IMG/VR virus record: IMGVR_UViG_3300033177_000258
DNA from: a virus
Lineage: Duplodnaviria; Caudoviricetes
Strand: one strand, 5' to 3'
Length of the DNA stretch: 64,000 bases
Positions 4,000-55,641 of this stretch are shown one piece after another; within the stretch, counting starts at the first letter, position 1; every line of letters begins with the position of its first letter. The notes below the pieces were generated by a model. It was not told the origin of the DNA. It worked only from the letters and a program-made list of their open reading frames with translations, and ran no database searches. Position numbers and translations under genes: made by a program.

Positions 4000-4827
4000 A
4001 TGGAACTGCACGTCTTTGGCACCCAAGAAACCATCCACCTCTCGTACAGCGAGATTCCGTGGGATGTAGACACGAAGCAGCGCACCGACCTGGACCCCGG
4101 CACCGGCGAACCCATGATGGAGTTCGTGCTCGACGCCGATGGCAAGATGAAGCGAGACGAAAACCTCAACCCGCTGATGCGGGCGGCGGACGGTAGCGAA
4201 GTCCCGGTGAAGACCGACGTGTGGGTCGAGAACCGCGCTTTCACCGTCCCCTTCGGCCCCTGCTGCATCAACCAGGAAGTCAAGCAGACGCAGTACGCCG
4301 ACCGCCCCGACGTGCAGGTCTGTCGCGGCACCTGCTGCCGCCAGCCGGTCTCAGTGAAGGTTAGCACCATCGCGGCCATCCTCAAGCACATGGATGGCAT
4401 CCTCAAGCACATGCCCCCGGCGAACGCGAAGCTGGCTTCGCTGGCGAGCCCGTTCCGCCACGAGTCCATCCGCCCGATGCCCGATGGCTCCTGTATCTTC
4501 TGGAACCCGGTCAACGGCCAGTGCGCGCTGTACAACTACGCCCAGGCCAACGGCCTGGATGTGAACCGCCTGCGGCCCATCCCATGCTCGCTGTTCCCCC
4601 TGCAGATTCAGGCCGGCTGGCTCGACCAGACCCCGCGCTACTTCGCGATGTTCATTGACCCCATCGTGATGCAGCAGCACAACATCGCCTGCCCCACGGC
4701 CGGCAATGGTGCCTGCAAGCCGGCGTACCTGAGCCTGAAGCGCGAGTTCGACACCGCCTTCGGGGAAGGCTTCTGGGAGGTCATGGTAGACGTGTATGAG
4801 CGGCACTTCAGACCAAAGCACGAGTAG
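4000..4827 (+). CDS. Cysteine-cluster protein (YkgJ/DUF3109-like)
   Basis: CRGTCC, GSCIF...CALY...RPIPCSLFPL; RBS GGAGGG. Confidence 0.7.
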   Translation: MELHVFGTQETIHLSYSEIPWDVDTKQRTDLDPGTGEPMMEFVLDADGKMKRDENLNPLMRAADGSEVPVKTDVWVENRAFTVPFGPCCINQEVKQTQYADRPDVQVCRGTCCRQPVSVKVSTIAAILKHMDGILKHMPPANAKLASLASPFRHESIRPMPDGSCIFWNPVNGQCALYNYAQANGLDVNRLRPIPCSLFPLQIQAGWLDQTPRYFAMFIDPIVMQQHNIACPTAGNGACKPAYLSLKREFDTAFGEGFWEVMVDVYERHFRPKHE

Positions 4828-4854
4828 GCTCACGGCGCTTTTCAGGTATATTCC

Positions 4855-5120
4855 GCAAGACGACGGCGACGGTAGACCCGCGCGGGACGAGTCAGAAGTG
4901 CTCGCGGTGTGGGCACGTTGCGCGGGGCAACCGCGTCAGCCAGTCAGAGTTCCAGTGCCAGAAGTGCGGCTTTCGAATCAACGCTGACCTCAACGCGGGA
5001 CGGAATGTGAAGGGGAAGTACCTGGTCCGAGAGGGCAGCGCCGTCTCGGGCGGGCCGCGTCAACCGGCCTAATGCAGCGTGTTGTTTGCGGCTGCAAGCT
5101 GCCTTCGGGTAGTGGTTGAC
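4855..5120 (+). mobile_element. Orphan tnpB 3'-end/omega-RNA cassette, cognate to TnpB 43960-45066
   Basis: Near-identical to the reverse complement of ~43905-44176 (KTTATVDPRGTSQKCSRC...NADLNAGRNV); ends ...GCTGCAAGC-hairpin-GGTTGAC. Confidence 0.88.
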
Positions 5121-5158
5121 GGTGGATGTTTACTACTATTGGCTTTGTGTAGAACGTA

Positions 5159-5596
5159 ATGTTCACAACGGGAATATCCCAATTGTTGGCTACCGCTAGC
5201 GAACGCGTGTCCACGCCCGAGGGTCTGTTCGCGGCTCTTGGGCGCCTGGAGACGTTCATCGTGGAGCTCTCAGAGTCGCTGAGCGAGAGCAAACCCGAGC
5301 ACGCCGTCGCCGCCGCGTTTCTTTCGGACGATGACATCGTGTCGGCTGTCCGCAGTATGTGCGCCGAGTATCTTCTCTCGGCCTGGTTCATGGGCAGCCT
5401 CAACGAAGCCATCAAGTCCAACTCGATTCCGTCGCAGCGCTTCACACCAGACGCCATTGTGAAAGCCATGACCAAGTTGCAGCGTATGGCCAAGCCGGTG
5501 GGCGAGACGGGAGCGAAGGTCGAGCAAGCCCTGGAAGCACTCATGCCCGCAGAAGGCACCGCAGCACCAGTTGCACTATCCGAGAAAGGATTGTAG
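5159..5596 (+). CDS. Hypothetical protein
   Basis: 145-aa ORF in operon. Confidence 0.55.
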   Translation: MFTTGISQLLATASERVSTPEGLFAALGRLETFIVELSESLSESKPEHAVAAAFLSDDDIVSAVRSMCAEYLLSAWFMGSLNEAIKSNSIPSQRFTPDAIVKAMTKLQRMAKPVGETGAKVEQALEALMPAEGTAAPVALSEKGL

Positions 5597-5612
5597 CCAG
5601 AGAGGAATCGCA

Positions 5613-8231
5613 ATGTCAAACAAAGTGGATAAGAGCCCGGTCGTCAGCACGTCTGTCCGTAGTCTCGCTGCCGCCATCGGCGTCAAGGAGCTGGATGTCT
5701 CGATTGCCAAGATGGCGTTCGTGCAGGGCATGAAGCGCGAGCAGATTTCCACCGCGCTCGGGCTCAGTTTCCGCAACGTGCAGGCCCGTCTGCACACGTT
5801 CGCGCAGTTCCATAAGGCGGCCGACATGCCCCCCGTGGACGCCGTTGATGCGCTGATGGGAATGCACGACGACGACCTTGAGTACACCCCGCCTGCCGAG
5901 CGCTACCGCAAGCGGCTTCAGGCGCAGGCACAGGCCATTGCCCGCCTGCACGAGTCGCTCAACAAGCGACAGGTTGTCATTGACAACGTGGTCGCGGCCC
6001 TCGTCGCCGAGCTGGGCACCTACGACCCGTCTCCCTATACGCCCATCCCGATGGAGGGCCGCAAGGGCCGGCCCGAGTACGCCATGCTGGAGCTCAGCGA
6101 CTGGCAGTTCGGGTCGAACTGGACTGGCGAAGACGTGGCCGGTCTGAACGAAATGAGCACCACCATCCTGGAGCAGCGCGTCGAACTGCTGACCCAGCGC
6201 GTGCTCCACCTCATTGACCTGCAGCGCTCCGCCGTGAACATCCCATGGCTGGTCATCAACGCCCTGGGCGACTTCATCGAGAACGAAATCATCTGGGAGA
6301 GCCAGGGCACGTACATTGATATGAACGCCTCCGACCAGATGATGGCGTGCCTAGAGTCCATGGAGAAGATGATGGTGACGTTCCTCCAGCACGGCGGCTT
6401 CGAGGAAATTAGGATGTACTGTTTCCCCGCTGGCACGCCGGTCCTAATGGGCGACCTCAAGCAGAAGCCCATCGAGGATGTGTCGGTAGGGGATGAGGTC
6501 ATCACGCACACGGGAGCGAGGAGAAAGGTTACTCGCACCGGCTCCCGTATTGCTGGTTCGGTCGTATCCATCGAAGCGGAGGGTTTGCCCAAGGCCATCA
6601 ATGCGACTCCCGAGCACCCATTCTTCGCCATAAAGGGCGACGGGGTGGTTTGTGCTCGCTACCCATCTTTCCAGAAGATGGGACGACGTTGTTGGCTACA
6701 AGAGCGCGACGTAGAGCACCACCCATGTTGCAGTTGCAATTCCAGACCCAATCCCAAGGCGGAGTGGGTGAAAGCGGCCGACCTCGTAGAGGGGGATTAC
6801 TTGCTGGTTCCCACTACGTCGGGCTTGGTGGACAACCCGACCCCAATTGGCCCTGACCACGATGCCTTCTCTGGGTGTGTTGTGCGGCGATACGGAGAGA
6901 GGTTTTCGGTTAGCAACTCGGAGCGCGCAGCCATGCAGGAACGTATGGGTGAGGTCAAGTCCATGCTGCCATTCGAGTTCTCTCCCCGCAATATGCGCAT
7001 ACTTGGTTTGTGGGTGGCAGAGGGTAGTGTGGGGGGTCCGACTGAGGGACAGCCCAATTCGCTCAGCTTCTCGTTCGGGGCGCATGAGGCGGAAACGCTG
7101 GCGCGCGATGTCGTTGAGTGGGCGCGGGATATGGGGGTGTCTAATGAAGACATCCGGCAGAACCTCCAAAATGAGAATAAATCTGCATTGGTAGTTACCC
7201 TGAACAACACGATGCTAGCCCGTCTCTTTGTCTACCTGGCCGGGAAGGGGGCAGCGGAGAAGAGCCTCCATTCGTCGCTGCTGATGATGGACCCATCGCT
7301 CCAACGGGAGCTGCTGATGGGCATGTGTGACGGCGACGGGACACGCTATGAGAAGGGGGCTTGTAGGGGTGCGCATCTGCGCTACTACACAGTATCGTCT
7401 TCACTGGCTGAAGACGCCAGGAGATTGGCTCTTCGCTGTGGTTTCCTGACATCTAATCAGGTGAGTGAGAGAGGAGACGGTCGTCTGCCCCAGCATTCCG
7501 TATGCCTCTCCCACCCGGATATCCCAGGTTCGGGGGACGGGAACGCGGGGAGGACGAAGCGTTGGGGAGGGTACATCGCGTTGCCCATCAGACAGATAAC
7601 GGCGGAGACCGCCGAGACTGTGGTATACAACCTGGAAGTCGAGATTGACCACTCGTATGTGGCAGGAGATGCTGCTGTTCACAACTGCGTGGCAGGTAAC
7701 CACGGCAGAATGGGAAAGAAACCAAACTCTATGCACTGGAAGAACAACTGGGACTTCCTGCTGTACCGCTTCCTGGCGCGCCGCTTCAAGAACGAGCCCC
7801 GCGTCAAGTTCATCATCGGCACGTCGCCCTGGCTCGCCTACCGGCTGCCGCAGGCCCCGCGCTGGAACCACGTCATCCTGCACGGAGACACCATCCCGAA
7901 CAACCTGGGCATCCCGTACTACGGCATCAACCGCGAGGTCGCCAAGATGGCAACCCTGACGAACATGCCGGTGCACCTGGTCCACCTCGGCCACTTCCAC
8001 CAGCCGTCCATCCTGGACAACACCTACGGCGCCAAAATCATCAACGGCTGTCTCACCGGCGCCTCGCCGTTCTCAGTGGGCAAGTTGCTGATGGGTGGCC
8101 TGCCGCAGCAGTTGCTGTTCGGCGTTCACCCGGAACACGGGCGCACCTGGAACTACCCGGTGCTGCTCGCCAACATGCCGGAAGTCACTGCCGATGACGA
8201 AGGCGTCTACTCGTCCTACGTCGAGGAGTAG
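5613..8231 (+). CDS. Calcineurin-like metallophosphoesterase with N-terminal HTH/coiled coil, intein-containing
   Basis: LSDWQFG, LGDFIE, GNHGR, LHGD, LGHFH motifs; RBS GAGGA. Confidence 0.85.
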   Translation: MSNKVDKSPVVSTSVRSLAAAIGVKELDVSIAKMAFVQGMKREQISTALGLSFRNVQARLHTFAQFHKAADMPPVDAVDALMGMHDDDLEYTPPAERYRKRLQAQAQAIARLHESLNKRQVVIDNVVAALVAELGTYDPSPYTPIPMEGRKGRPEYAMLELSDWQFGSNWTGEDVAGLNEMSTTILEQRVELLTQRVLHLIDLQRSAVNIPWLVINALGDFIENEIIWESQGTYIDMNASDQMMACLESMEKMMVTFLQHGGFEEIRMYCFPAGTPVLMGDLKQKPIEDVSVGDEVITHTGARRKVTRTGSRIAGSVVSIEAEGLPKAINATPEHPFFAIKGDGVVCARYPSFQKMGRRCWLQERDVEHHPCCSCNSRPNPKAEWVKAADLVEGDYLLVPTTSGLVDNPTPIGPDHDAFSGCVVRRYGERFSVSNSERAAMQERMGEVKSMLPFEFSPRNMRILGLWVAEGSVGGPTEGQPNSLSFSFGAHEAETLARDVVEWARDMGVSNEDIRQNLQNENKSALVVTLNNTMLARLFVYLAGKGAAEKSLHSSLLMMDPSLQRELLMGMCDGDGTRYEKGACRGAHLRYYTVSSSLAEDARRLALRCGFLTSNQVSERGDGRLPQHSVCLSHPDIPGSGDGNAGRTKRWGGYIALPIRQITAETAETVVYNLEVEIDHSYVAGDAAVHNCVAGNHGRMGKKPNSMHWKNNWDFLLYRFLARRFKNEPRVKFIIGTSPWLAYRLPQAPRWNHVILHGDTIPNNLGIPYYGINREVAKMATLTNMPVHLVHLGHFHQPSILDNTYGAKIINGCLTGASPFSVGKLLMGGLPQQLLFGVHPEHGRTWNYPVLLANMPEVTADDEGVYSSYVEE
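6420..7685 (+). mobile_element. Intein (422 aa) with LAGLIDADG homing endonuclease
   Basis: Y|CFPAGT...ATPEHPF...LGLWVAEGS...LLMGMCDGDG...VYNLEV..DHSYVA...VHN|C. Confidence 0.92.
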
Positions 8232-10057: not shown

Positions 10058-12889
10058 ATGCCGTTGACAGGTCTAACGCCCGAGCAGTTTGCCGCCGCGA
10101 CCGCGCCTCCGTCGCCCACCATCATTGTCGCCGGTCCTGGAAGTGGGAAGACCCGCACCATCGTCGCGCGGGCTCGCCACTACTCACAGGTGATTGACCC
10201 TCGCCGCATCCTGCTTGTCACATTCACCAACAAGGCGGCCCGTGAGGCGGGGGAGAGGCTCGCCAGCTACGGCGCGGCCGGCTTCCACACGTCAACCTTC
10301 CACTCCCTTTGCGCTCAGAACCTGCTGGCGCGGACCAAGTTCTCCATCGCCGATGAAGACGCGGCCAAGTCCATCATCAAGGAAGCCATCGAAATGGGCG
10401 GGCTGGGCCTGGACCCCGGCCGGGTCCGAGACTGGATTAGCTGCGAGCGCAACAAGGGCTTCACGCTGACGGAGCCGCCGCCCCAGGCCGTTGACGAGTT
10501 CATGGAAATCTGGAAGCAGTATGATGCCCTGAAGGCCCACTACAGACTGCTAGACTTTGACGATTTACTGTCTGAGTTCGTCTCGACAGGCATCGTGGAT
10601 GAAGTGGCGCAATTCTTCCAGATGGTGCTGGTAGATGAGGTGCAGGACACGAACATTGGCCAGTATAGGATAGTAGAGCGTCTTGCTGCGCCCCATAGAA
10701 ATGTAACCATGGTAGGGGACGTTGACCAGTGCGTAGCCCCTGAAACCATGATACGCATTGGAGGCTCGGGGCGTAGGATAGACCAGTGCCGCCCTGGCAC
10801 AATGGTTACGGCCATTGGGCGGGAAGGCGCCCATCGCAGCATGATTTCCGACAGAAAGGAATTGTGGGGGCCGCGTTTGCGTGTGACGCTTTCCAATGGT
10901 TCGAGCCTCGTTTGCTCCCCGTCCCACAAGATGTTTGCCAGGATGCCTCGCGAGAGCGCCGGGAACGATGGGTTGGTCTACCTCATGCGCGACGCCACAG
11001 GTCAGCGATGGCGCGTGGGCCGCACTAAAATGCGCTTTCGCAGCAATAGCCCAGGAAGAACATGGACTGGCCTCCATAATCGGCTTCATTTCGAGAAAGG
11101 CGATTGCGCCTGGATTGTAAAGTCGGACCTGACTGCCTCTGAAGCGGCTTCTTGGGAGCAGATAACGGCTTGTCGCTACGGCATACCCACAGCATGTTTC
11201 TCTGCGAAACCAGGAGCTATGAGCCAGGAAACAATTGACGCGATTTATGATGGCCTGGAAGGGGGGAGGGAAGGGGCGGCTCGTTTACTTGCTGACTTGG
11301 GTTATGACACCGCCCACCCACATGCCACCACTAACCGCGCCTGGCGCGAAGCGGATTATGCCCCGATGTTGAACCTGGTCATGAATTGCGCTCGGCCGAG
11401 GCGGCGCCATCGCATTCAGTTGGAAAGTCGCTGTAGGAAGACGGCGGAACGGGTTGCCTCGGTGCTTGGGGCGAGTGCTATCCGTATAGGTGACGCGGGT
11501 TGGAGAGTGGCGACGGAATCGTCCAGCTTTGAGCTTCTTGTGGAGCAGGCGGCTCTAATCAGGCGCACGATGGGGGACGGAGTAGATTTCCGTGAAACGG
11601 CAAACTTTCCTCAAGGGCGTTTCGACGTGATGCCTGCGTCCAACCTGTGCGTTGGGATGGAAGTTCCGGTTATAGTGGGGGAGCATCACGTAGTAGCAGT
11701 AGTTTCGTCAGTAATCCCTGTCGGGGATGGGCCGCTGGTTGACATATCCATTCCTGAGTATGGCAATTATGTCGCCAATGGCATCGTGACCCACAACAGC
11801 ATCTACGGCTGGCGCGGGGCACAGCCCGGTAACTTGGAGAAGTTCGCCACCGAGTTCAACGCCCAGGTCTTCGAATTGACCTACAACCACCGCTCCACCA
11901 GTCGCATCGTGGACTTCAGCCGGAAGGTCATTGACCAGTACCCCGCCCCGATGCGGACTTCCGCTCTGCAGTCCACCCGGCCCGAGGGGCATCACCCGTC
12001 AGTCTACGTCTACTATGACAACGAGGCGGAAGCACGTGCCATTTCGACCTGGTGTCGCGACCTGATGAACCAGGGCGTCCCGGCGCGCGAAATCGCCGTG
12101 CTCTTCAGGACCAACGCCCAGACCCAGCCGGTCGAGGAGGCTTTCACGGAGAGCCGTCTCGGCTACACCGTTGTGGGGGCCATGTCGTTCTACGACCGCA
12201 AAGAGGTGCGCGATGCGCTCTCGTTCGTGCGGGTCCTGGTCAACGACATGGACGTGCCCAGCTTCCGGCGTAGCCTGCTGTGCGTGCCGGGCGTCGGTGA
12301 CGGCAGCGTCCGCGACCTCGTGGGCATCATGAACCAGGAGAGCTGTGGGCCGCTGGCGGCCATCGCGCGCTACTGCTCGGGCAAGTCCGGGGACCGCGCC
12401 GAAATGCTCCAGCGCTATGCCGATGCGATGTACCAGATGCAGCAGATGCGCCCCGAAGAGGGCATCAAGCTGGCCGCCGACGAGTTCCTGACGGCGAAGT
12501 ACGCTTCGGACCAGCGGGCCCAGGACCGCATGGAGAACGTTGAGGCGCTGTACAATGTGGCGGCCAAGTTCGCTACGGCCAGCCAGTTCATCACCTCCGT
12601 CTCGCTCGTGTCATCTTCCGATGAGGAGCACCAGGGTGTCTGCCTGGCCACCTGCCACGCGGTCAAGGGCCTGGAGTTCTCGGCGGTCTGGGTGGCCGGC
12701 GTCGAAGACGGGCTCTTCCCTCACGTCAAAGCCGATAGCGACGAGGAAGAGAACCGCTTGCTCTACGTCGCCTGCACCCGCGCCAAGGACATCCTGTCCC
12801 TGAGCTGGTGCCGGATGCGCAAGCACTGGGGCAAGACCTCAACCACTGACCCGAGTCCATATCTGGTAGCCATGGGAGCTGCGAAATGA
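10058..12889 (+). CDS. uvrD: UvrD/PcrA/Rep helicase, intein-containing
   Basis: AGPGSGKT, TFTNKAA, TFHS, VDEVQD, GDVDQ|SIYGWRGA, NHRS, FRTNAQ, HAVKGLEF, EENRLLYVACTRA. Confidence 0.93.
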   Translation: MPLTGLTPEQFAAATAPPSPTIIVAGPGSGKTRTIVARARHYSQVIDPRRILLVTFTNKAAREAGERLASYGAAGFHTSTFHSLCAQNLLARTKFSIADEDAAKSIIKEAIEMGGLGLDPGRVRDWISCERNKGFTLTEPPPQAVDEFMEIWKQYDALKAHYRLLDFDDLLSEFVSTGIVDEVAQFFQMVLVDEVQDTNIGQYRIVERLAAPHRNVTMVGDVDQCVAPETMIRIGGSGRRIDQCRPGTMVTAIGREGAHRSMISDRKELWGPRLRVTLSNGSSLVCSPSHKMFARMPRESAGNDGLVYLMRDATGQRWRVGRTKMRFRSNSPGRTWTGLHNRLHFEKGDCAWIVKSDLTASEAASWEQITACRYGIPTACFSAKPGAMSQETIDAIYDGLEGGREGAARLLADLGYDTAHPHATTNRAWREADYAPMLNLVMNCARPRRRHRIQLESRCRKTAERVASVLGASAIRIGDAGWRVATESSSFELLVEQAALIRRTMGDGVDFRETANFPQGRFDVMPASNLCVGMEVPVIVGEHHVVAVVSSVIPVGDGPLVDISIPEYGNYVANGIVTHNSIYGWRGAQPGNLEKFATEFNAQVFELTYNHRSTSRIVDFSRKVIDQYPAPMRTSALQSTRPEGHHPSVYVYYDNEAEARAISTWCRDLMNQGVPAREIAVLFRTNAQTQPVEEAFTESRLGYTVVGAMSFYDRKEVRDALSFVRVLVNDMDVPSFRRSLLCVPGVGDGSVRDLVGIMNQESCGPLAAIARYCSGKSGDRAEMLQRYADAMYQMQQMRPEEGIKLAADEFLTAKYASDQRAQDRMENVEALYNVAAKFATASQFITSVSLVSSSDEEHQGVCLATCHAVKGLEFSAVWVAGVEDGLFPHVKADSDEEENRLLYVACTRAKDILSLSWCRMRKHWGKTSTTDPSPYLVAMGAAK
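10730..11797 (+). mobile_element. Intein (356 aa) with a probable GIY-YIG-like endonuclease
   Basis: Q|CVAPET...CSPSHKM...VYLM...RVGRT...GNYVANGIVTHN|S. Confidence 0.88.
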
Positions 12890-14303: not shown

Positions 14304-14387
14304 AAGTACCTTGACATCTGAAACTTTTCCAGTGCTACCCATGACGTGGGTTCGATTTTGCGGAATACTTCTCTCTGGTGATGACCA

Positions 14388-15080
14388 ATGGCTAAGCCGG
14401 AATTGAGAGAGAAGGCCCGAGCGCTCAGGCGTGAGGGCAAGTCCGTGAAGTACATCCAGAAAGCACTCGGGGTATCTTCGTCATCTGTCAGTAGATGGGT
14501 GAAGAGCGTTGAGCTAACTGAAGAGCAGAAGCAAGCACTGCGGGATGCCAGCGGCGGAGACCGGCGTGCGCTTGTAGGCGAAGAGGCATTGGCCAAACGC
14601 AGGGAGCGCGCCGAGCAGCGGTGGAAGCAGGCAGAAGAAGAGGCGGAGAAGCAGTGGCCCGAGCTCGTCAAAGACCCGCTCTTTGGTATCGGGCTGGGCT
14701 GCTACATCGGCGAAGGCACCAAAGGCAACGGCGTAGTGACTATCTGCAACTCCGACCTGTTTGTTGTCAAGAACTTCATCGAGTTCAGCCGGCTAATCGG
14801 CGCCGACATAGACAGGATGAGGCTTACGGTGCACATGGCCTACGACCCGACCCCGGAGCAGCGAAAAGCTGTTCTTGAGCACTGGCTCGCAGGCTTGGGC
14901 GTCTCTCCTTCGCAGTTGGCTCCTCAACCAATAATACTGAAGCGGGGAGCCGGTCCACTCCGCAATGGCGGTGAAGGTTCTCGGCGTAGCCTGCTGTATG
15001 GAGTTGCGCGTTTTGGTTGCACAGACGTTCAACTCAGTAAGAAGCTGCACTGGTGGATGCGTAAAGCACTGGGAAAGTGA
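14388..15080 (+). CDS. Putative homing endonuclease (N-terminal HTH plus degenerate single LAGLIDADG domain)
   Basis: REKARALRREGKS...IQKALGVSSSSVSRWV; GLGCYIGEGTK...ICNSD; lies between two CAU tRNAs. Confidence 0.65.
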   Translation: MAKPELREKARALRREGKSVKYIQKALGVSSSSVSRWVKSVELTEEQKQALRDASGGDRRALVGEEALAKRRERAEQRWKQAEEEAEKQWPELVKDPLFGIGLGCYIGEGTKGNGVVTICNSDLFVVKNFIEFSRLIGADIDRMRLTVHMAYDPTPEQRKAVLEHWLAGLGVSPSQLAPQPIILKRGAGPLRNGGEGSRRSLLYGVARFGCTDVQLSKKLHWWMRKALGK

Positions 15081-18972: not shown

Positions 18973-19048
18973 TGCGCTGCTCAAGTATCCCGAATAGTGT
19001 CTTACCACAACCATAGCCAGCACGGAATACTTCATGTTGGTGATGGAA

Positions 19049-19552
19049 ATGCAGAAGCGAAGCATTATCTGGCGCTTGCCGTCGAACGAGTTCCGAGAAT
19101 TGGTTGCGTCCTGCGACACGTATGCGGAAGTGCTGCGGCATTTTGGCATGCTGCACAAGGGCGGGAACCACAACACCCTCAAGAGACGTATCCAACATGA
19201 AGGCATAGACGCGTCCCATCTTGAGGAAGGCGGTGCCCGACGTTCCAGAGAAGCGCTTGGGCGCTCCAGCAAGGGGCTTAGGCTTTCAGACGAAGATGTC
19301 TTCCGCGAAGGGTCCACCTACTGCCGCTACAATCTGAAGCGGCGTATCTTGGAGCAGGGTCTCATACCTTATGTGTGCGGGGTATGCGGCATGGGGCCAG
19401 AGTGGAATGGCAAGCCCATCTCTCTACCATTGGACCACATCAACGGTGTGTCTGACGACCACCGTTTGGAGAATCTGCGTTTTCTGTGCCCCAATTGCCA
19501 CGCCCAGACGGAGACGTTTGGGAGGCGAAAAAGGGGTGGTGTTGCCGGATAG
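19049..19552 (+). CDS. HNH homing endonuclease
   Basis: CGVCG...EWNGKPISL.LDHING...DHRLENLRFLCPNCHAQT; stop lies inside tRNA-Gln. Confidence 0.9.
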   Translation: MQKRSIIWRLPSNEFRELVASCDTYAEVLRHFGMLHKGGNHNTLKRRIQHEGIDASHLEEGGARRSREALGRSSKGLRLSDEDVFREGSTYCRYNLKRRILEQGLIPYVCGVCGMGPEWNGKPISLPLDHINGVSDDHRLENLRFLCPNCHAQTETFGRRKRGGVAG

Positions 19553-37821: not shown

Positions 37822-37831
37822 GAGGCGCGAC

Positions 37832-39930: not shown

Positions 39931-40506
39931 ATGCCCAGAGCCGCTAAGAACAAAGAAGAGAAGGTGGTGCAGGAGGAGAAGGTGGTAGACGACCGGGAGA
40001 GAGTGGGGGAATTGGTTGAGTTGCTGGTCCCGCTGTTGTCGGTGCAGGGTTGGGACTTAACCATCGAGTACCGTCAAGAGGTCGTCATCAACGGGGAGCC
40101 GGCAGAGGCCGCTATCGCCATCTTCCCGGCACTGTTGGAAGCGGTCATCTTCGTGGACGAGACCCTTCCGCTAGCACGTAAGATGATGGCGGCCGTTCAC
40201 GAGTTCGTTCACCTCTCGCAGCACGAGCTTATCTACGTCGCCCAGGAGTTGGACATCTACCTGCGAGAGCCGGAGCTATCCATCCTGGAGCGCAGGCTTT
40301 CCAAGGCTCTGGAGCCTGCCTGCATCCGCGTCTGCCGGCCGCTCTATGAGATGCTTGGCGGGACATTCCCAGAGCTTCTGGAGGATTGCGAGGCTCCGCT
40401 CCTGACACAGGAATCGGCGTCCCGCAACCAGACAGGCATCAACTCCATCAGCAGCAAAGAGTTGCGTCAACGAAGCCGGGGCACACCTTACACAGTCCTG
40501 GTATAG
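39931..40506 (+). CDS. Hypothetical protein with HExxH motif
   Basis: RBS GGAGG; AVHEFVHL. Confidence 0.55.
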   Translation: MPRAAKNKEEKVVQEEKVVDDRERVGELVELLVPLLSVQGWDLTIEYRQEVVINGEPAEAAIAIFPALLEAVIFVDETLPLARKMMAAVHEFVHLSQHELIYVAQELDIYLREPELSILERRLSKALEPACIRVCRPLYEMLGGTFPELLEDCEAPLLTQESASRNQTGINSISSKELRQRSRGTPYTVLV

Positions 40507-40526
40507 GCGTCGGGGAGGAGCAACAA

Positions 40527-40554
40527 AGAGGGGGCGGCCAGAGCCGCCCCCTCT
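40527..40554. terminator. Bidirectional terminator at the strand switch
   Basis: AGAGGGGGCGGC-caga-GCCGCCCCCTCT between convergent genes. Confidence 0.7.
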
Positions 40555-40558
40555 GCTG

Positions 40559-41569
40559 TTACTCTTGGGGGTCGGTCCCGTGTAGCAGACCGCGCCCGAT
40601 GTCGGTGATTTCTCGGCCGCGCGGCCCCCGTAGGATAGCTCCGACCTCCTGCAGGTATCGCTCAGCGGCGCAGATGTTGTCTGGGCTCTCGCCCAAGTAC
40701 GCCGCCATGGCGTCTATTCCCACGGGCTTGCCGACCTGAACCAACTTCCGCAGGAGCCGGCGCTCCAGAGCGCCCAGCCCGTGGCGGTCTACCCCCATTA
40801 GGTCGGCCATCACTTCGGCCACCCACTCCCCCGAGACCGTCGTATCACTGGCTTCCACGAGAGCCACGTCGGCGAGTTCACTGAGGTTCCGCACGATGAG
40901 GCGTGGGGTCCCCTGGGAGCGCTGAGCAACGGCGCGCAGGGCATCATCGCTGAAGCGCGCCATCTGCGGCTGGCTGCAGCGGTCCATGTCGTAGTGCGCC
41001 TTGGTGATGCGGAACAACTCCTCCTCGGTGTACGGCTCCAAGTACATCATGCGCACGCGGGTGACCAGCGGCGTGAGTAGCTGCCCGGCGTCGGTGGTGG
41101 CTCCCACCAGCGTGAACTTGGGGAGGATGCCGCTCACGAGACGGTTGTTCTTGACTAAGTTGACCTGACGGTCTTCGATGGGATGATAGAGCGCCTCGGT
41201 GGCGTCCTTGGTCATCCGGTGAATCTCGTCAATGAACAGGATGGTAGGCTTGATGGGGGCCCCGGTCTGGACCCAGGCGTCAGTGGCTGGGTCGAAGATG
41301 TAGCCCTCGACCGAAATCTCGTCCACCAGCCGGATGACATCTTCTTTGGTGCGCACGGAGTCCCCGGTGGTCTCCACGAAGTTGACGCCTCGCTCATGCG
41401 CCAGGGCGCGAGCGAACGTTGTCTTCCCGGTCCCGCGCGGGCCGTAGAACACCATGTGAGGCAGGGCATCGTTCTTGATGCGGGACGCCTCAACCAGCAC
41501 GCTGAGCCGGCGCCGCAGAGCCTCCTGCCCTACGATGTCGGTCAGCTTGGACGGTCTCCAGTCGCTCAT
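40559..41569 (-). CDS. ruvB: Holliday junction branch-migration helicase RuvB
   Basis: RPSKL.DIVGQE, GPRGTGKTT, FIDEIHR, FTLVGATT, GTPR, GPRGR. Confidence 0.93.
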   Translation of the reverse strand: MSDWRPSKLTDIVGQEALRRRLSVLVEASRIKNDALPHMVFYGPRGTGKTTFARALAHERGVNFVETTGDSVRTKEDVIRLVDEISVEGYIFDPATDAWVQTGAPIKPTILFIDEIHRMTKDATEALYHPIEDRQVNLVKNNRLVSGILPKFTLVGATTDAGQLLTPLVTRVRMMYLEPYTEEELFRITKAHYDMDRCSQPQMARFSDDALRAVAQRSQGTPRLIVRNLSELADVALVEASDTTVSGEWVAEVMADLMGVDRHGLGALERRLLRKLVQVGKPVGIDAMAAYLGESPDNICAAERYLQEVGAILRGPRGREITDIGRGLLHGTDPQE

Positions 41570-41579
41570 GTGCGGACTC

Positions 41580-42335
41580 CTACTTGGTCAATGCCTCTCG
41601 GTTCAGACCTGTTACCACCCAGCCGAACTGCTGTTCCTCGATGTTCTCGGACTTGAGCCCCGCGAGGTTCGCCAGGATGACGGCTTCCTCCTGCGTGAAC
41701 TGCAGGTTCATCAGGCCCCGCACTGACATGGACGCCAGCGTGAACAGCGTGGTCTGGAAGATGGAGCAGCGCGCCGTCAGGGACCCATAGCTGCGGATGC
41801 CGTCCACGTAGCCCCCGAGCGTGCCGCACAGCAGCAGCCGGGCATTGGTGTCGCAGAAGGCGCTCACGCGGTCGCTCAGCACCATCTGGTCGTAGCCCTG
41901 CTTCTCGGCTTCCTCGTTCAGTAGCTGCATCATCTTGGCCGAGTGGCCGTCGAACATCACGATGCGTCGCTCATTCTGCTGATGCGCCGCCAGGGGTCGC
42001 CCCTGCCCGCTCAGGAAGAAGCGGAAGTAGGTGCCCTTGTCGTCTTCCTCCGTCAGTACCGCGAGCTTCCGTTCGGTGTTGAACTCCTCCACGCGCACCA
42101 GTGCGCTGGTCACAGCCGGCGTCAAGCCGCTGTTCTGGACAGCCTCCCGCTCCAGGTACAGAGCGAGGTCGGCGACGTGGCCCTGACTCAAGACCTCCTC
42201 GCCAAACCCCATGATGGCTTCGGGGTCGTCCGTCTCAACCGTGGTGGGGTTCTTGGACCCCAACTCGATGTTGCCCCCGTTCTCGTCCTTCTGGTTCACC
42301 AGCAGCAGCGCGTTGGTATGTAGCGTCAACTTCAT
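41580..42335 (-). CDS. Hypothetical protein
   Basis: RBS AAGGAG; headed by the repeat element. Confidence 0.6.
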   Translation of the reverse strand: MKLTLHTNALLLVNQKDENGGNIELGSKNPTTVETDDPEAIMGFGEEVLSQGHVADLALYLEREAVQNSGLTPAVTSALVRVEEFNTERKLAVLTEEDDKGTYFRFFLSGQGRPLAAHQQNERRIVMFDGHSAKMMQLLNEEAEKQGYDQMVLSDRVSAFCDTNARLLLCGTLGGYVDGIRSYGSLTARCSIFQTTLFTLASMSVRGLMNLQFTQEEAVILANLAGLKSENIEEQQFGWVVTGLNREALTK

Positions 42336-42396
42336 CTATTCGGTTAACTCCTTTGTGGTAACACTTATCCGCGCACGATTGCGGGGCGCAAAGCAA

Positions 42397-42428
42397 AACG
42401 GGCACCCGGCCGAAACCGGGTGCCCGTT
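42397..42428 (-). terminator. Rho-independent terminator
   Basis: AACGGGCACCCGG/CCGGGTGCCCGTT hairpin followed by T-run on the - strand, directly before a repeat element. Confidence 0.7.
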
Positions 42429-42446
42429 CATTGGCGGTGGCAGGGC

Positions 42447-43082
42447 TCAGCGCGCCTGCTTCCTCGTGACCTGGCCGATGACCCAGACCGTGCGGCCGTA
42501 GTAGGTCTCGTTGGCGAGATACTTGGCGCGGCTCGGAGAGATGACGCACACATCCAGGTGGTTGGCCTTCCGCACGGCGGACCCACGGTCTACCACAATG
42601 AGCGAACGGTCCTGCTGCGGGCTATAGAAGACCGTGCCAAACGGCCAGCGCTTGGATGCGGCGCAGTCCCCGTCGCGCAAGTACTTGCGGCAGCCCCAGG
42701 CGGGCCCTCCGCTGCCCCCGAGGGGGTCATAGTGCGGGCGGTTGAACGAGTAGTTCGGCTGGTAGTGGGTCATCTTGATGCCGCCCACCTTCTCGCACTT
42801 GCCCATGGCGAGGCGCTCGGCACAAGCTCGCTTCCAGTCGGGGGAGCTAGGGTCAAGCAGGACGCGGCGCGCCCAGAGTAGGGCGGGGTTCTGCGGGTTC
42901 TGGTTGAGACGCGACCCGAGCGTATAGAGCGGCCCAGGGCACAGAGGGACGGGAACGTCGAGCAGCGTAGCCGCCCAGGCTTTGACTTCAGCCTTCTCGG
43001 CGGTGGTGGCGGGCGCGGCGTGGACCATGGCGGCGGTAAGTAGACCCAACATGAGGGCCAGAACGACCTGTCTCTTCAACAT
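42447..43082 (-). CDS. Secreted protein with 3D/RlpA-like domain
   Basis: Signal peptide; MTHY...CAA...WPFGT...VVDRGSAV...HLDV. Confidence 0.65.
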   Translation of the reverse strand: MLKRQVVLALMLGLLTAAMVHAAPATTAEKAEVKAWAATLLDVPVPLCPGPLYTLGSRLNQNPQNPALLWARRVLLDPSSPDWKRACAERLAMGKCEKVGGIKMTHYQPNYSFNRPHYDPLGGSGGPAWGCRKYLRDGDCAASKRWPFGTVFYSPQQDRSLIVVDRGSAVRKANHLDVCVISPSRAKYLANETYYGRTVWVIGQVTRKQAR

Positions 43083-43161
43083 TGGCGTTGCTCCTTCTAG
43101 CGCACCGGGGGAGCCTTGCGGCGTCACCCGGTTTGCCTACTGTGATTATGGTGCGGCTCTC

Positions 43162-43848
43162 TTAGTTGTCGTTGCTCGTGCGGGCTTCGTCGGCCAGTTC
43201 CCGGACCAGGGCGGCGTGCGCCTGGCTGTACCAACTGCGGAAGACCTTGGAGCGGTCGAGCGTGTAGAGGTACTCGTCGTAACGCTGGTTTTCGGGCTGG
43301 AACGGAGAGACCATCTTGTCGGTGACGGCGCTCTTGGGGGCCAGCACCATACCGGCGATGTTGCGGCTCTCCGCTACCACGTGTGCGATGCGGCGCTCCC
43401 AGTCGGCCAGGAGCCCCGGCCGTTTGATGGCGGTGGCGATGATGTCCATGACGGCAGTACGAAGCTCCCCGCTGTCACGCGGGTCCATGATGTAGGCGAA
43501 GTCAGCGGCTTCGACACCGACTTCCGAGGCTGCGACGGCGCGCGTGCGGGCGCTCTCCCAGCCCTCGGTGTGACTGAACTGGTCCTCGGGAGAGCAGCCG
43601 GAGACCCCGAAGTAGACGTGCCGGGGAGCGCCGGGCTCCGTCTTCAGGGACAGCCCGCAGATGACGAGTCCGCCGTAGGGCAGCAACATCAGGCGGTTGC
43701 TGGAGTTGGGAATGTGGGCCAGTTCGGTGAAGAGACGGAGCGTGACGCCCCAGGACTCGTAGGGTGCGTTGGCGGTGCCGCAGCGGCCACACACGTCAGA
43801 CCCTGCGGGAAGTTCGTTTTGACACTGACGACACTGGACTAGAGACAT
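43162..43848 (-). CDS. Hypothetical protein with N-terminal zinc ribbon
   Basis: RBS AGGAGG; CRQC...CGRCG. Confidence 0.6.
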   Translation of the reverse strand: MSLVQCRQCQNELPAGSDVCGRCGTANAPYESWGVTLRLFTELAHIPNSSNRLMLLPYGGLVICGLSLKTEPGAPRHVYFGVSGCSPEDQFSHTEGWESARTRAVAASEVGVEAADFAYIMDPRDSGELRTAVMDIIATAIKRPGLLADWERRIAHVVAESRNIAGMVLAPKSAVTDKMVSPFQPENQRYDEYLYTLDRSKVFRSWYSQAHAALVRELADEARTSNDN

Positions 43849-43959
43849 GGCGATTCCTCCTGCGCTTTCGTTGGGTTTGAGTGAGTAGCTTCTCGAAGCC
43901 GGCCCATCAACCGCCGCTACGCTTTGGTAACGGCTTGCAGCCGCAAACAACACGCTACT

Positions 43960-45066
43960 TTAGGCCGGTTGACGCGGCCCACTCGGAACGCCTATAGCCT
44001 CCCGAGTTAGGTACTTCCCCTTCACATTCCGTCCCGCATTGAGGTCGGCGTTGATTCTGAAGCCGCACTTCTGGCACCGGAACTCTGACTGGCTGACGCG
44101 GTTGCCCCGCGCGACGTGTCCGCACCGCGAGCATTTCTGGCTCGTCCCGCGCGGGTCTACCGTCGCCGTCGTCTTGCCGCCTTCCTCGGCTTTGTAGGCC
44201 GTGAACGCGAACAGTTGGGCGAAGCTCCACCCGTGGAGACGACGGTTGCCATGCCGGCCGAAGTCAGCGCGGTCACGGATTCCAGTCAGGTTCTCGAAGA
44301 CGAGTACGGCTCCTGGGTCAACGGACTCTACAAGGCGGCGGGACAGTACGTGGTCGCAGTCGCGGCGAAACCTAGCCTGCTTGCCCGAGAGCTTACGTAG
44401 CTTACGACGGGCGGAGCGAGTGGCCTTTGCCTGCAAGGCTCTGCGAAGACGGAAGTACCGCTGTTCGACGTTGCGCCAGCGCCGCTCACCGAAGAACTGG
44501 GCTTCGGAGGTGACGGCCGGGCGGACAATGCCCAAGTCTACACCGACAACCTCGCCGGTTGCGGTGTAGACGGGGGCGGGGGACTCTACAACGACGTGGA
44601 GCCAGAACTGGTTGCGACGGTAGACGAGTTCGGCCGAGGTGGGCTTCCAGGTCTGGAGCCGGGTGAAGCTGGCGTCGAATGTGACGCGCTGGCGACCGGC
44701 GACCGTGGCGAGGGTGGCCCAGCCTTCGGTGAGGGAAATGGTGTAGGACTTTACATCATACCTGACGCTTTGGCATCGCGACTGCGGGAGTGTCGCCGCC
44801 TTTCCTTTGGCGAGACGCACTCTTACGCTCTGAAGAGCTTCTGTGGCTTTGGCTCTGGAAGAGCATACCAGGCGGGAGTGCAACGATGGGTATTGCTCGC
44901 GCAGGGGGTAGTAGGTAGCATGGTGAATGGCCACGCCATTGGTTGTCTTGTTCTTCCAACCGAACTCGGCAGCCACGTTGAAGCAGGCCGTGTACTGCTC
45001 CATGGTAGCCAGGAGAGCTTCACGACCTGCTTTCACATCGAGTTGGACGATGATGGTACGCTGCAT
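43960..45066 (-). CDS. tnpB: RNA-guided endonuclease TnpB, intact; omega-RNA end at ~43905
   Basis: GVDLG, FENL, TSQKCSRCG...FRCQKCG...NADLNAG; downstream GTCAACC...GCTGCAAGC...GGTTGAT. Confidence 0.93.
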   Translation of the reverse strand: MQRTIIVQLDVKAGREALLATMEQYTACFNVAAEFGWKNKTTNGVAIHHATYYPLREQYPSLHSRLVCSSRAKATEALQSVRVRLAKGKAATLPQSRCQSVRYDVKSYTISLTEGWATLATVAGRQRVTFDASFTRLQTWKPTSAELVYRRNQFWLHVVVESPAPVYTATGEVVGVDLGIVRPAVTSEAQFFGERRWRNVEQRYFRLRRALQAKATRSARRKLRKLSGKQARFRRDCDHVLSRRLVESVDPGAVLVFENLTGIRDRADFGRHGNRRLHGWSFAQLFAFTAYKAEEGGKTTATVDPRGTSQKCSRCGHVARGNRVSQSEFRCQKCGFRINADLNAGRNVKGKYLTREAIGVPSGPRQPA

Positions 45067-45148
45067 TGGGAGTTCTATGGAACCTCAGTTCATGCTGGTT
45101 ACGCATAGAAGTATTCCGTGTTGCGGCGTGCCGTGTCGAGAAAAGTTG

Positions 45149-45484
45149 CTACGTGATGACAACGCCAGCATCCGCCAGCGTGCGCTCCACCCGCAGCTTG
45201 GCTTTGTACGCCACGTTCCGCGCGTCGTTGCGGTCATACGGCGTACCATCCTCGTGCTTGAGGCCCAGGTCCATCACCCGGTCGGCGAGCTTGCCATACA
45301 ACTGCCGGCGCGTCAACTTCTTGACGGCTGGGATGGAGAACTTGCCCACCTGGCTGTCCACGAGCATGACGCCCGCCACTTTGCAGGTGTGGCGCACTAC
45401 ATTGGTCGCCTTCGGCTGCGTCTTGGCGGCAGCCTTCGCCTTCGGGCTCTTGGCGGGCGCACTGCCCGCAGCCTTCGTCTTCAT
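45149..45484 (-). CDS. Hypothetical basic protein (K/A-rich N-terminus)
   Basis: RBS AGGAGG; headed by the repeat element. Confidence 0.65.
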   Translation of the reverse strand: MKTKAAGSAPAKSPKAKAAAKTQPKATNVVRHTCKVAGVMLVDSQVGKFSIPAVKKLTRRQLYGKLADRVMDLGLKHEDGTPYDRNDARNVAYKAKLRVERTLADAGVVIT

Positions 45485-48491: not shown

Positions 48492-48616
48492 GGCTCGGGC
48501 CTCCTTCAGGTGTGTGCTTACACCTATTGGCGCACGATTGCGGATTTCTCTGACACTGCTCCGCGCGACACGGAATACTTCTATGTGACAGAACAAAGTT
48601 CCTATACGAGCCAAGA

Positions 48617-48904
48617 ATGAACCGCACGCTCGCCGTCAAACTCAGTCCGAATGAAGTGACCCGCGTGGCGCTCCTGGCAACCATGGAGCAATACACGGCC
48701 TGTTTCAATGCGGCTGCCGAGTTTGGTTGGGAAGGCAAGACGGATAACGGCGTCGCGCTCCATCATGGTACCTACTACCCACTGCGAGAGCGGTTTCCTC
48801 AACTCCCGGCAGAGCTTGTTTGCTCGTCTCGCGTGAAAGCTACCGAAGCCCTCAAGTTCGTTCGCGCCCGCATCCGCAAGGGGATGAACTTTGGCCAGGC
48901 TTGA
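48617..48904 (+). pseudogene. tnpB: tnpB N-terminal fragment
   Basis: MNRTLAVKL...LLATMEQYTACFN...HHGTYYPLRE, homologous to the N-terminus of 43960-45066. Confidence 0.85.
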
Positions 48905-49021
48905 GTGACTTCCATACAACCTCCCTTTGGTCTTGGGGCAAGACCGTTACCCCATGGCGTCAGTGCTTTACACCTTCAGCGGCGACAGACCACCTCCCGG
49001 CTACCTACCAGTTCCGCGCGC

Positions 49022-49477
49022 TCAGTGCTCGGCATGTTGTGCCCCCTGGTCGGCTAGCGCCAGTAGTTCGGCCACGTCATCCCGGTCCAGCCGGTTGACC
49101 ACCACGTGTTCCCGGCCACGGTCCTCCCAGGACACGTCCGTCAGGTGGGCCTCCGGCACCGCCACGGTCTCACAGTCCCCGTCCCGGAACTGGACTATCG
49201 CGACCGGGAACTGCCATTGGTCCAGCCGGTCCCGCACGGCCAGCAGGGCCCGCGTGGTCGCCGTCAACACAATGGCCTCATCAGTCGGTGCCAACGGCGA
49301 CCACCATCGCTCACAGGTGTGGGCCGCCGGCGCCTTGACGGTCCACCCGCCCCCCGGTCCGCCGTAACAGGTGCCGTAGCCCAACACGCGCCCGTACATG
49401 GCGATTGACTCGGCGTCGGTATCCATCCGGCAATAGTGACACGTTGCGCACACTCGCTGCAGGTAGTTGGTCATCAT
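49022..49477 (-). CDS. Hypothetical protein
   Basis: ORF in - strand operon; CATCHYC. Confidence 0.5.
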   Translation of the reverse strand: MMTNYLQRVCATCHYCRMDTDAESIAMYGRVLGYGTCYGGPGGGWTVKAPAAHTCERWWSPLAPTDEAIVLTATTRALLAVRDRLDQWQFPVAIVQFRDGDCETVAVPEAHLTDVSWEDRGREHVVVNRLDRDDVAELLALADQGAQHAEH

Positions 49478-53735: not shown

Positions 53736-53907
53736 CGGTGTTTCCTCCTGTGGAAAGCTACCTTTGGGTGGCGGTTGAACCTGTTCTTGGAATCATTACA
53801 GAGAGCCCGCGCCGGGTTGTGTCACCAAGCTATGCCGATGACCCCGGCGCGGACTCTCAAACCTACCCCACAGCACTCTCTAGCCCCACCACCGCCAGCC
53901 TCACCGC

Positions 53908-54387
53908 CTAAGCCTTGACCTTGAGTTCGACGGGATGCGCCTCAGCCACGGCCCGCGCCACGACATCAGCCGGGAGCCCGAGCTTGTTCAGCTTGCCGGC
54001 GTCCAGCCCGGCGCAGGCCAGAGCGCAGGCCAGCGCTTCCACAACGGGAGCCATCGCGGTTTCCAGTTCGTCCGTCATGACGACGACCGGGAAGGTCGTG
54101 GTCATTGTGACGGTGCTGTTCGAGGCGACCTCGGGGATGGAGACGCGCACGTCGCTGCCCGCCGCCTCCAGCGCCTTGTTGGCGTCCTGGATGCGGATGG
54201 CGGCCAACTCGAAAGCGCCCTGGTAGTCCTTGGACGAGCGGCTACCCTCCTCGGTCTGCATCTCCAGCAGGCCGAACGGGAACTCGGCCTCGGTGTTACC
54301 CTGGCCGCGCTCCTTCGCCTTGTCCTTCAGTTCCTTGAACAGTCGCTCGCCCGTCTTCAGCAGCAGCAGAAAGTTACTCATTTCCAT
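53908..54387 (-). CDS. Hypothetical protein
   Basis: RBS AAGGAG; headed by the repeat element. Confidence 0.6.
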   Translation of the reverse strand: MEMSNFLLLLKTGERLFKELKDKAKERGQGNTEAEFPFGLLEMQTEEGSRSSKDYQGAFELAAIRIQDANKALEAAGSDVRVSIPEVASNSTVTMTTTFPVVVMTDELETAMAPVVEALACALACAGLDAGKLNKLGLPADVVARAVAEAHPVELKVKA

Positions 54388-54474
54388 TTACTCTCCTTAG
54401 TCGGGGTGGCCCGCCCGATGGGCGGTCTCATACTACTCAGCGCACGATTGCGGGATTTCTCTGACACCGCCTCG

Positions 54475-54953
54475 CGCGAGCCGCGTCCGCGACCTGACTC
54501 ACAAGGCTACGCGCACGATTGCGGATGCTTTTCCTGGCGCAAAGTGCTATGTGGGCGAGCCATTCAACGACGCGGCCCAGAAGATGGGTCGTCGTCAGGC
54601 CCAACAAGTCTCCCAGGCGTGCAATGCCCGCCTAATCACGCAACTCGGCTACAAGACTGCGGGAGCAATCACCGTAGGCGAGGCGTACAGTTCCCAAACG
54701 TGTCCCGTTTGCGGAACTAGGAACAAGTGCCAGCGGACCTACCGCTGCAAGCAATGCGGCTTTACCGCCCCACGTGACGTGGTAGGCTCCGCCAACATCC
54801 GTTGCATTGGTATGCGCGGCGAGCTTGTTCCAGGCTGTGACGTGCCCAACGTCTGGACCTACAAGTATCATGGGGTCACTGCTCCAGGTAGTTCCGGGGG
54901 ACGCCCGGCACGTAGCTCGCGCAAGCGAGAAGCCGCTTAGGCGGCAGCGTCAC
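54475..54953 (+). mobile_element. tnpB: tnpB 3' fragment with omega-RNA end (copy of the 28639-29605 family)
   Basis: RVRDLTHKATRTIADAFPGAKCYVGEP...RSSRKREAA*; ends GGCAGCGTCAC. Confidence 0.85.
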
Positions 54954-54966
54954 GCACCTATCATCC

Positions 54967-55641
54967 CTAATACGAGTAAGGGAGAAACGGCATATACACC
55001 CTCACGTTGACCCCGCGACTGCGACACAGCCCATCCATGTCATCAGTTCCGTACCGGACCTCGACCAGGAGCTTGAGTTCGGGCGGCACCGCGCTCTTGA
55101 GCCGGTAGCCCATGCTCTGCCGCTTGCCCTGGGTCTGGCGGTCATTGTACTCGAAATCCACGTACTCCTCAACGGTGAACGGGATGCCCGCCCGCGTCAG
55201 GGCGTCCTCTACGAAGCAGAGAGACTCCCTGGCGTACTTGCGGGATTGGGTCTGGGTGGAGTAGTTCGACTGTGTGCTGGAGTCGGTCACGTACTCGGCG
55301 TCGGGGTCCAGTTGCAGGTCCCACTTGCCAGCGTAGAACGCATTGGCGAGCGCTTTCTTGCGCCGCTCGATGATGGCGAGCATGCGGTCGCTGGTGCGAT
55401 AGAGCCTGTCCACACGGTCCCAAAGCGGAAGTCGAATCTCAATGGCCGACTGGATGCTGATGCGGTGCCGCCACTCTTCGTCTTGGCGGAGCCGAGCGCC
55501 CTTCTTGCGAGCCCGGTACGCGACCTCGTTCTCCATCGCGCGGGCGTCCTGTTCACACTGGTTGCAGATGTCGCTGCGCAGGCGCCGGACTAGCTTCTCA
55601 CGCCGGCAGAGTGCGAGGTATTGCTCTTGTGGTGTCATTAT
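54967..55641 (-). CDS. Hypothetical protein
   Basis: RBS GGAGG before MTPQEQ. Confidence 0.55.
   Translation of the reverse strand: MMTPQEQYLALCRREKLVRRLRSDICNQCEQDARAMENEVAYRARKKGARLRQDEEWRHRISIQSAIEIRLPLWDRVDRLYRTSDRMLAIIERRKKALANAFYAGKWDLQLDPDAEYVTDSSTQSNYSTQTQSRKYARESLCFVEDALTRAGIPFTVEEYVDFEYNDRQTQGKRQSMGYRLKSAVPPELKLLVEVRYGTDDMDGLCRSRGVNVRVYMPFLPYSY

Follow-up and report, generated by a model that had tools for sequence, protein, structure and literature searches.

Cas12 descends from TnpB, a nuclease whose natural role is understood chiefly through its TnpA-linked retention in bacterial chromosomes. In this paper we looked at 64,000 nt of phage DNA (IMG/VR record IMGVR_UViG_3300033177_000258; the whole stretch is called the window here), in which TnpB genes and remnants of such genes are found without a transposase. 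The best reading of the window is that it holds seven TnpB/omega-RNA cassette copies in differing states of decay: the genes tnpB1, tnpB2 and tnpB3, the 3'-end remnants C1, C2 and C3 and the 5' fragment F4. We consider it fairly probable, from the comparison of sequences, that these are free-standing TnpB/omega-RNA homing cassettes which are driven by a phage promoter and pass through a cycle of invasion, fixation and decay.

The closest described systems are the TnpB elements of the IS200/IS605 family of insertion sequences (IS), of the ISDra2 type and of the tnpB-only IS1341 group. The cassettes resemble these in their RuvC and zinc-ribbon domains, in a putative structured RNA that overlaps the 3' end of the gene and in a guide that would be taken from the right flank. 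They differ in that no TnpA accompanies them in the window, in that a promoter-like box is found instead of a recognisable left-end hairpin, in that the putative 3' RNA has no matching family in Rfam, and in being inserted at the ends of genes in a large, lytic-type phage, with these ends duplicated. The cassettes are also similar to SegF, SegG and MobE of the T-even phages (intronless homing, marker exclusion), as they lie between conserved genes and are present or absent among close relatives, and, like the T-even free-standing homing endonuclease genes, they have a promoter-type box in common with the HNH genes of the phage. By analogy, one would predict that they cleave the cognate site in coinfecting relatives and that they decay once fixed. 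Unlike SegF, SegG and MobE, the cassettes would recognise their site by an RNA guide and not by protein, and would be protected mainly by interruption of the site and not by polymorphism alone.

TnpA-independent spread of IS605 elements by TnpB, as 'non-restorative homing' into coinfecting phages or plasmids, was discussed in a review that treats the phage case as a theoretical possibility and cites plasmid experiments as evidence (PMC13565253); for restorative TnpB homing see PMC10055086. In the non-restorative concept the orthologous empty site of a homologous replicon is cleaved by TnpB, and the element is then copied into it during repair. This is close to what we suggest, although our suggestion is drawn from phage strains found in nature, in which duplicates restore the genes and products of decay can be seen. 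The protein-less copies that keep a right end also recall the non-autonomous IS200/IS605 derivatives of the palindrome-associated transposable element (PATE) and miniature inverted-repeat transposable element (MITE) type. Yet neither two transposon ends nor multiple dispersed copies were found here: each remnant is single-copy and unique to its site, has no transposon left end, and goes back to a deletion in place, at a site that is occupied by the long form in a sister strain.

The window comes from an uncultured phage of ~215 kb, exact copies of whose proteins lie on Joint Genome Institute (JGI) metagenome contigs of up to 215,187 bp. No close relatives were found among GenBank phages or in IMG/VR, and the comparison contigs are metagenome assemblies throughout. 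The sister strain is represented by Logan contigs of SRR27197515 (L009, L012, L021 and L022), which are ~96-97% identical to the window in the flanks. Relatives with ~73% protein identity were compared at the C1 site (L001 and L002) and at the tnpB3 site (L014), and L005-L008 and L015-L017 are more distant relatives.

Cassette anatomy

Three TnpB families are present in the window. The open reading frames (ORFs) of all three match the Pfam families OrfB_IS605 and Cas12f1-like_TNB above cut-off, and the D, E and D motifs and CxxC pairs of a RuvC and zinc-ribbon nuclease are seen in the alignments. TnpB1 (30935-32041, minus strand) and TnpB2 (43960-45066, minus strand) have 368 amino acids (aa) each and are 34% identical to one another, and the TnpB3 ORF (28652-29746, minus strand) shows ~26% identity to TnpB2 in a local alignment of 201 residues. 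TnpB2 aligns to TnpB/Cas12f structures of the PDB and TnpB3 to the ISDra2 TnpB structures 8bf8 and 8exa, and a JGI metagenome scan returned only TnpB homologues of 24-59% identity. The homology of TnpB3 to the sister-strain gene on L022 and to ISDra2 TnpB begins at ORF residue 42 (base 29623), at the point where the conserved phage gene H2 starts on the opposite strand (29622-30140); ~74 N-terminal codons and the upstream box are missing. These results bear out the proposal of an earlier note, made by a model from the DNA alone, that two of the families are intact and one is truncated. An intact tnpB3 gene of 364 aa was also considered and was rejected, as its first 41 codons are antisense to H2.

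The tnpB2 cassette (43907-45148, minus strand) is the only apparently complete one, with the box GGAATACTTC, the ORF and a right end that closes in GGCGGTTGAT (43906-43910). The tnpB1 cassette (30926-32067, minus strand) has a box (GGGATACTTC) and an intact ORF without the terminal right-end motif: its last three codons and stop run into the terminator hairpin of a converging gene (30107-30925), and downstream of GCTAGCTGCGA its sequence is that gene's terminator hairpin and coding end. The truncated tnpB3 (28639-29621, minus strand; TnpB homology 28652-29623) has kept its right end (GCAGCGTCAC, 28639-28643), which provides the last base and the stop codon of a helicase gene and is followed by the guide position (28638-28623).

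The sole sequence common to the regions upstream of all tnpB starts is (A/G)C-GGAATACTTC, which lies 6-50 nt before the start. It is also found before two HNH endonuclease genes (19034-19552 and 26088-26741), a helix-turn-helix gene (14388-15080) and two further small ORFs. Nine sites were observed in the window against 3.3 expected, including 14362-14371, 19024-19033, 20004-20013, 26062-26071 and 39634-39643, those of tnpB1 (32048-32057, minus strand) and tnpB2 (45108-45117, minus strand) and that of F4 (48572-48581). Its placement makes it likely that the box is a phage promoter common to mobile nuclease genes.

The upstream regions bear on whether the cassettes are ordinary IS debris, that is, IS200/IS605- or IS1341-type elements that were once moved by TnpA from the host or from elsewhere in the genome, with no role for TnpB in their spread. 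Many of the copies are indeed decayed, TnpB-only elements are common in phages (491 phage records hold a TnpB match), and at every IS200/IS605 right end the guide position is old flank, so any insertion shows identity to its empty site. We nevertheless regard this explanation as unlikely. No recognisable IS-type left end or left-end hairpin was found, and the tnpB upstream regions in the window have in common only the promoter-like box that also belongs to the HNH genes. A Pfam scan (E<=0.001) of 134 ORFs of 90-330 aa, outside the annotated large genes, detected no Y1 transposase or serine recombinase and no other transposase family, in agreement with the earlier note, which had seen no TnpA in the window, and the combination of TnpA with subterminal left- and right-end hairpins that marks an IS200/IS605 transposon does not occur in the 64 kb. 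The cassettes are also placed exactly at the ends and overlaps of genes, which stay whole in spite of the insertion, and their putative RNA structure is kept at the cost of protein sequence; both observations count against debris.

A sequence found upstream in both C3 and F4 was considered as a retained transposon left-end tip, which would have made the remnants MITE-like. This was rejected because the sequence, GCGCACGATTGCGG, is a dispersed phage box with ~20 copies against 1.1 expected, at 42371-63851 of the window, on the plus strand only and upstream of minus-strand genes; one copy lies in frame inside C3 (54511). Judged by its distribution, it is a regulatory-type box of the minus-strand gene block at 42-64 kb.

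At their right ends families 1 and 2 have a conserved GTTGAY motif and family 3 has GTCAC (GCAGCGTCAC in both copies). C1 closes in GTAGTGGTTGAC, its sister-strain form and tnpB2 both in GGCGGTTGAT, and C2 in GGTAGTTGAC. Homologues from other metagenomes, with 34-59% protein identity, close on the same motif (GTTGAC, GTTGAT or GTTTAC), and since the motif is kept at such distances the guide positions of C1 (from 5121) and C2 (from 35404) were correctly placed in the earlier note. The pattern of substitutions speaks for a structured RNA in the 3' region. An 11-bp hairpin of C1 (5025-5051) corresponds to 43981-44007 of tnpB2, and all 11 pairs are kept, four of them changed on both sides and three on one side, despite amino-acid changes. 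When C3 is compared with tnpB3, 6% of positions differ over the last 300 nt and 29% over the 180 nt before them. Against such an RNA are the fold z-scores of the 3' regions, which are only -1.9 and -2.2, and the lack of a match in Rfam.

Filled, empty and decayed sites

Self-comparison of the window shows three 3'-end remnants, each with a different downstream sequence, at the positions where the earlier note had seen a separate 3'-end cassette for each family. C1 (4828-5120, plus strand) is a family-2 remnant whose part 4855-5120 (266 nt) consists of the last 72 codons and an omega-RNA-like scaffold ending in GGTTGAC; 4855-5099 is 89% identical to the tnpB2 3' end. The promoter box and ~296 codons are deleted. 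At this site the sister contig L009 follows the window to base 4856 and then continues into an upstream box and codons 1-188 of a TnpB that is 85% identical to TnpB2, and L012 has the right end and the same flank. C3 (54474-54953, plus strand) is a family-3 remnant of 157 codons in frame with the right end GTCAC, 87% identical to the tnpB3 3' end over 54482-54953. A 750-bp deletion with 6-nt microhomology at the junction has taken its box and first ~240 codons, and the sister contig L022 has the box and codons 1-320 at the same site. By this comparison, C1 and C3 derive by deletion in situ from full cassettes, which are still found at these sites in the sister strain, and the promoter-like box was lost in both. 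As remnant and full gene differ mostly at third codon positions (15/24 and 43/71), the remnants diverged while they were still working genes, and the loss of their 5' parts is recent.

The C1 site is empty in L001 and L002, in which genes A and B have an overlap of 41 nt and the sequence is ...GGTAATGGTGGATGTTTACGAGCG. Past the C1 right end, 13/13 bases are identical to this overlap, for which a hand estimate gives a chance of ~2e-5. The C1 guide position (5121-5136, plus strand, GGTGGATGTTTACTAC) is a relic of the old A/B overlap, in which the former gene B start (ATGTTTACTAC) is kept. Gene A's working tail (4781-4827, plus strand; TCAT, then GGTAGACGTGTAT and on to TAG) is a paralogous copy of the relic. 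At each of the four wobble sites it differs from the relic, with GGTAGACGTGTAT in the gene A of the window where L001 and L002 have GGTGGATGTTTAC. Gene B (5159-5596, plus strand) has its working start, ATGTTCACAAC, 33 nt downstream of the old one, and in the sister strain the two starts are in frame.

Some further features of this junction can be described. In the window (5126-5161) the old gene B start opens a 9-codon mini-ORF with its stop 6 nt before the working start; the latter has no obvious ribosome-binding site, the mini-ORF stop is GAG in the sister strain, and translational coupling of the mini-ORF and gene B is possible. In L005 (6920-8059), and also in L006-L008, a gene of 326-391 aa with no Pfam match and no TnpB similarity lies between A and B, and the A-B junction seems to be a recurrent insertion spot.

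For tnpB2 the situation is reversed: the window has the intact gene, and the contig L021 of the sister strain gave no match to TnpB and has four small genes in its place. L021 9709-12038 matches window 43906-41577 at 99.6%, and the bases past the tnpB2 right end are the last 17 codons of an intact gene Q. The tnpB2 guide position (43849-43905, minus strand; first 16 nt 43905-43890, GGGCCGGCTTCGAGAA) is thus the displaced end, ~17 codons, of gene Q. C1 and C3 being old common insertions that decayed in the window, and tnpB2 being intact in the window and absent from the sister strain, the pattern is reciprocal and fits the proposed cycle. At the tnpB3 site L014 is cassette-free, its helicase gene and H2 overlap by 4 nt, and H2 of the window is 59% identical to the gene that follows the helicase there. 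In the more distant relatives no TnpB was found in the corresponding gene stretches, which cover the C1, tnpB3 and tnpB1 positions. Presence/absence polymorphism between conserved flanking genes, as known from free-standing homing endonucleases, is therefore a property of the cassettes. The expectation of the earlier note that cassette-free alleles would match the guides exactly held for C1 (13/13 in L001 and L002) and for tnpB2 (gene Q of L021); for the C2 site relatives were sought and none was found.

The surroundings of tnpB2 have changed in other ways as well. Compared with L021:8210-9819, gene Q (147 aa in the sister strain) exists in the window only in pieces (48883-49025 and 43849-43906, both minus strand), with its ribosome-binding site and first ~10 codons fused to F4 and its last 17 codons following tnpB2, and the window lacks three small genes of that strain (82, 166 and 53 aa). 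In a 111-aa gene next to tnpB2, the last 11 codons (45149-45181, minus strand) show only ~60% identity to those of the sister strain and the 46 nt before them show no difference, which may point to a conversion tract or to a substituted tail. The 195-kb JGI contig L003 is 99.9% identical to window 25441-44748 and then departs inside tnpB2: past the switch (L003:19309-22013 against window 44748) it has a 72%-identical tnpB2 5' part and then dnaE. Either two family-2 cassettes have recombined there or the assembly is chimeric.

The two other copies are C2 and F4. C2 (35322-35403, plus strand) is a family-1-like right-end stub of 82 nt that ends in GTAGTTGAC, is 86% identical to the tnpB1 3' end over 35322-35375 and is too short for a complete scaffold. 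Its guide position (35404-35419, plus strand, CAAGAGCTGGGACACC) matches 12/16 bases of a site (35494-35509) in the methyltransferase gene that starts at TTG 35441. F4 (48544-48883, plus strand), overlooked in the earlier note, is the 5' fragment of a family-2-like cassette with a box and codons 1-88 (48617-48883), 67% identical to TnpB2 residues 1-88, and at 48883 it joins the start region of gene Q, which is inverted (48883-49025, minus strand). Its 3' side was considered as a retained right end and this was ruled out, as it consists of the native upstream region and start of gene Q, inverted. The 165-aa gene that adjoins F4 is not homologous to the 166-aa or 171-aa genes of the sister strain.

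Guide bases and the spelling of gene ends

Another question that is raised by the remnants is whether they are maintained as guide-RNA genes. The earlier note had proposed that the phage programs TnpB in trans from dispersed guide cassettes, so that intact TnpBs would be loaded against conserved genes of relatives whilst the phage's own alleles are protected by selected recoding. It is C1 that lends some colour to this: it keeps a 266-nt scaffold that is 89% identical to that of tnpB2, with the hairpin, an intact TnpB2 is present, and the position of C1 in sense between genes A and B makes read-through transcription possible. As a whole the proposal is not supported. C1 and C3 are recent in-situ deletions of cassettes of which the sister strain has the long form, and the box was removed in both. 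C3 is antisense to its neighbours, with its guide position (54954-54969, plus strand, GCACCTATCATCCCTA) lying opposite the end of gene 54967-55707, and the TnpB3 that would serve it is truncated. With C2 a stub of 82 nt, C3 orphaned, the boxes lost and F4 keeping the 5' half, there is no consistent guide retention. It is unlikely that C2 and C3, two of the three remnants, are functional, and the set of own promoter, full scaffold, cognate nuclease and retention that would mark a stand-alone trans guide-RNA gene was not found, with C1 as a possible exception. Since the bases at the guide position are old flank, as in any IS200/IS605 right end, no purpose-built guides are needed, and the 'orphan omega-RNAs' are explained as decay products and not as a new multi-guide system. 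Maintained trans-acting guides thus appear to us quite improbable.

The same proposal held that the guide bases are a wobble-only variant of the adjacent gene. Within the window this is at chance level for both remnants concerned. The best local match of C1 has 6/16 mismatches against a null median of 5, and C2 has 4/16 mismatches to the methyltransferase, which 22% of random 16-mers match as well within 600 nt; a 14/16 match to the C2 guide bases lies at 38758, in another frame of a second methyltransferase. The relationship of C1 to gene A is nevertheless real, because it is seen in L001 and L002: the C1 guide matches these cassette-free relatives, and the window's own allele differs from it at 4/4 wobble sites. 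As 58-69% of conserved codons differ between the window and L001, this equals the genome-wide background and 4/4 wobble differences have p ~0.14, which counts against selected recoding. On the other side, the family-2 tnpB paralogues differ at 15/73 third positions and the A tail differs from the relic at 4/4, so the working tail is unlikely to be a recent in-place duplicate that merely drifted. It may have been either imported or driven to differ, and self-immunity by recoding would be compatible with these spellings.

There remains a narrower version, in which C1 would be a live guide parasite without a nuclease of its own: it would be transcribed with the A-B operon, be loaded by TnpB2 in trans and still cut the GGTGGATGTTTAC... 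allele, the ancestral A/B overlap, in relatives that have no cassette. We regard this as doubtful. If true, C1 would drive itself and the re-spelled ends of A and B into relatives, or would exclude these relatives, and homing cassettes that are guided by RNA and carry replacement gene ends with them may then be, more widely, a general class of phage gene drive.

A candidate homing cycle

A more probable mechanism is the cycle of free-standing homing cassettes. Each cassette would consist of the promoter-like box GGAATACTTC, tnpB and the structured RNA overlapping its 3' end, and expression would be driven by the phage box. As its guide, the complex of nuclease and RNA would use the bases just beyond the right end, which are what originally stood at the invaded site. 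During mixed infection it would cleave the uninterrupted site of a relative that has no cassette, and repair would copy the cassette in, together with neighbouring alleles, whilst the carrier would be protected because its own copy of the site is interrupted. Where the invaded gene is important (A and B), a differently spelled duplicate (the A tail, the B start) would keep it whole; where it is unimportant (Q), the gene would be lost. Once fixed, the cassettes would no longer be selected and would decay by deletion, as C1, C2, C3, the truncated tnpB3, tnpB1 without its right end and F4 may illustrate. The suggestion of the earlier note that TnpB acts here as a free-standing homing gene fits, as far as sequences can tell, with the lack of TnpA and of an IS left end, with the box shared with the HNH genes and with the presence and absence of cassettes between strains. 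Transcription, cleavage, use of a TAM (a short motif that TnpB needs next to its target) and spread by homing are what we infer from these features.

Several observations weigh against the cycle. Among close relatives none was found in which the C1, C2 or C3 site is empty, and L001 matches only 13-14/16 of the C1 guide bases (the guide-position relics are 13-16 nt long, a length that may reflect TnpB cutting). At the tnpB2 site ~1.5 kb of genes were replaced, and not merely interrupted. The bases before the matching site differ (GTAAT in L001, GTTCT in L021, TCAT in the carrier's own gene A), so the cassette-free alleles may not be cleavable; in an attempt to derive a TAM, no single motif was common to the left flanks and the empty sites. 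Finally, the long sister-strain genes were seen as codons 1-188 and the right end at the C1 site and as codons 1-320 at the C3 site, and this partial view is due to the breaking of Logan contigs at 31-mer repeats.

As for the remainder of the window, its G+C content is 59-66% in 2-kb windows, and it encodes a UvsX-like recombinase, an exonuclease, helicases, an amidase/endolysin, a RuvB-like ATPase, two DNA methyltransferases, a clamp-loader-like ATPase and 10 tRNA genes clustered with HNH endonuclease genes. Three replication or modification genes (35441-37453, 5571-8231 and 10058-12889) appear to hold inteins: homologues of the methyltransferase 35441-37453 have LAGLIDADG/intein Pfam families, the exonuclease has 872-886 aa against 449-459 aa in relatives, and the helicase 943 aa against 586 aa. 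Dense direct repeats of ~48-160 bp, with up to 100% identity, occupy 60132-64000 in and around a large minus-strand ORF (60988-62607).

What the cassettes offer is a phage population in which filled, empty and decayed alleles exist side by side, with guide positions that match cassette-free alleles. As a defined nuclease, its RNA and natural target alleles are in hand, RNA-guided homing between viruses is directly testable.

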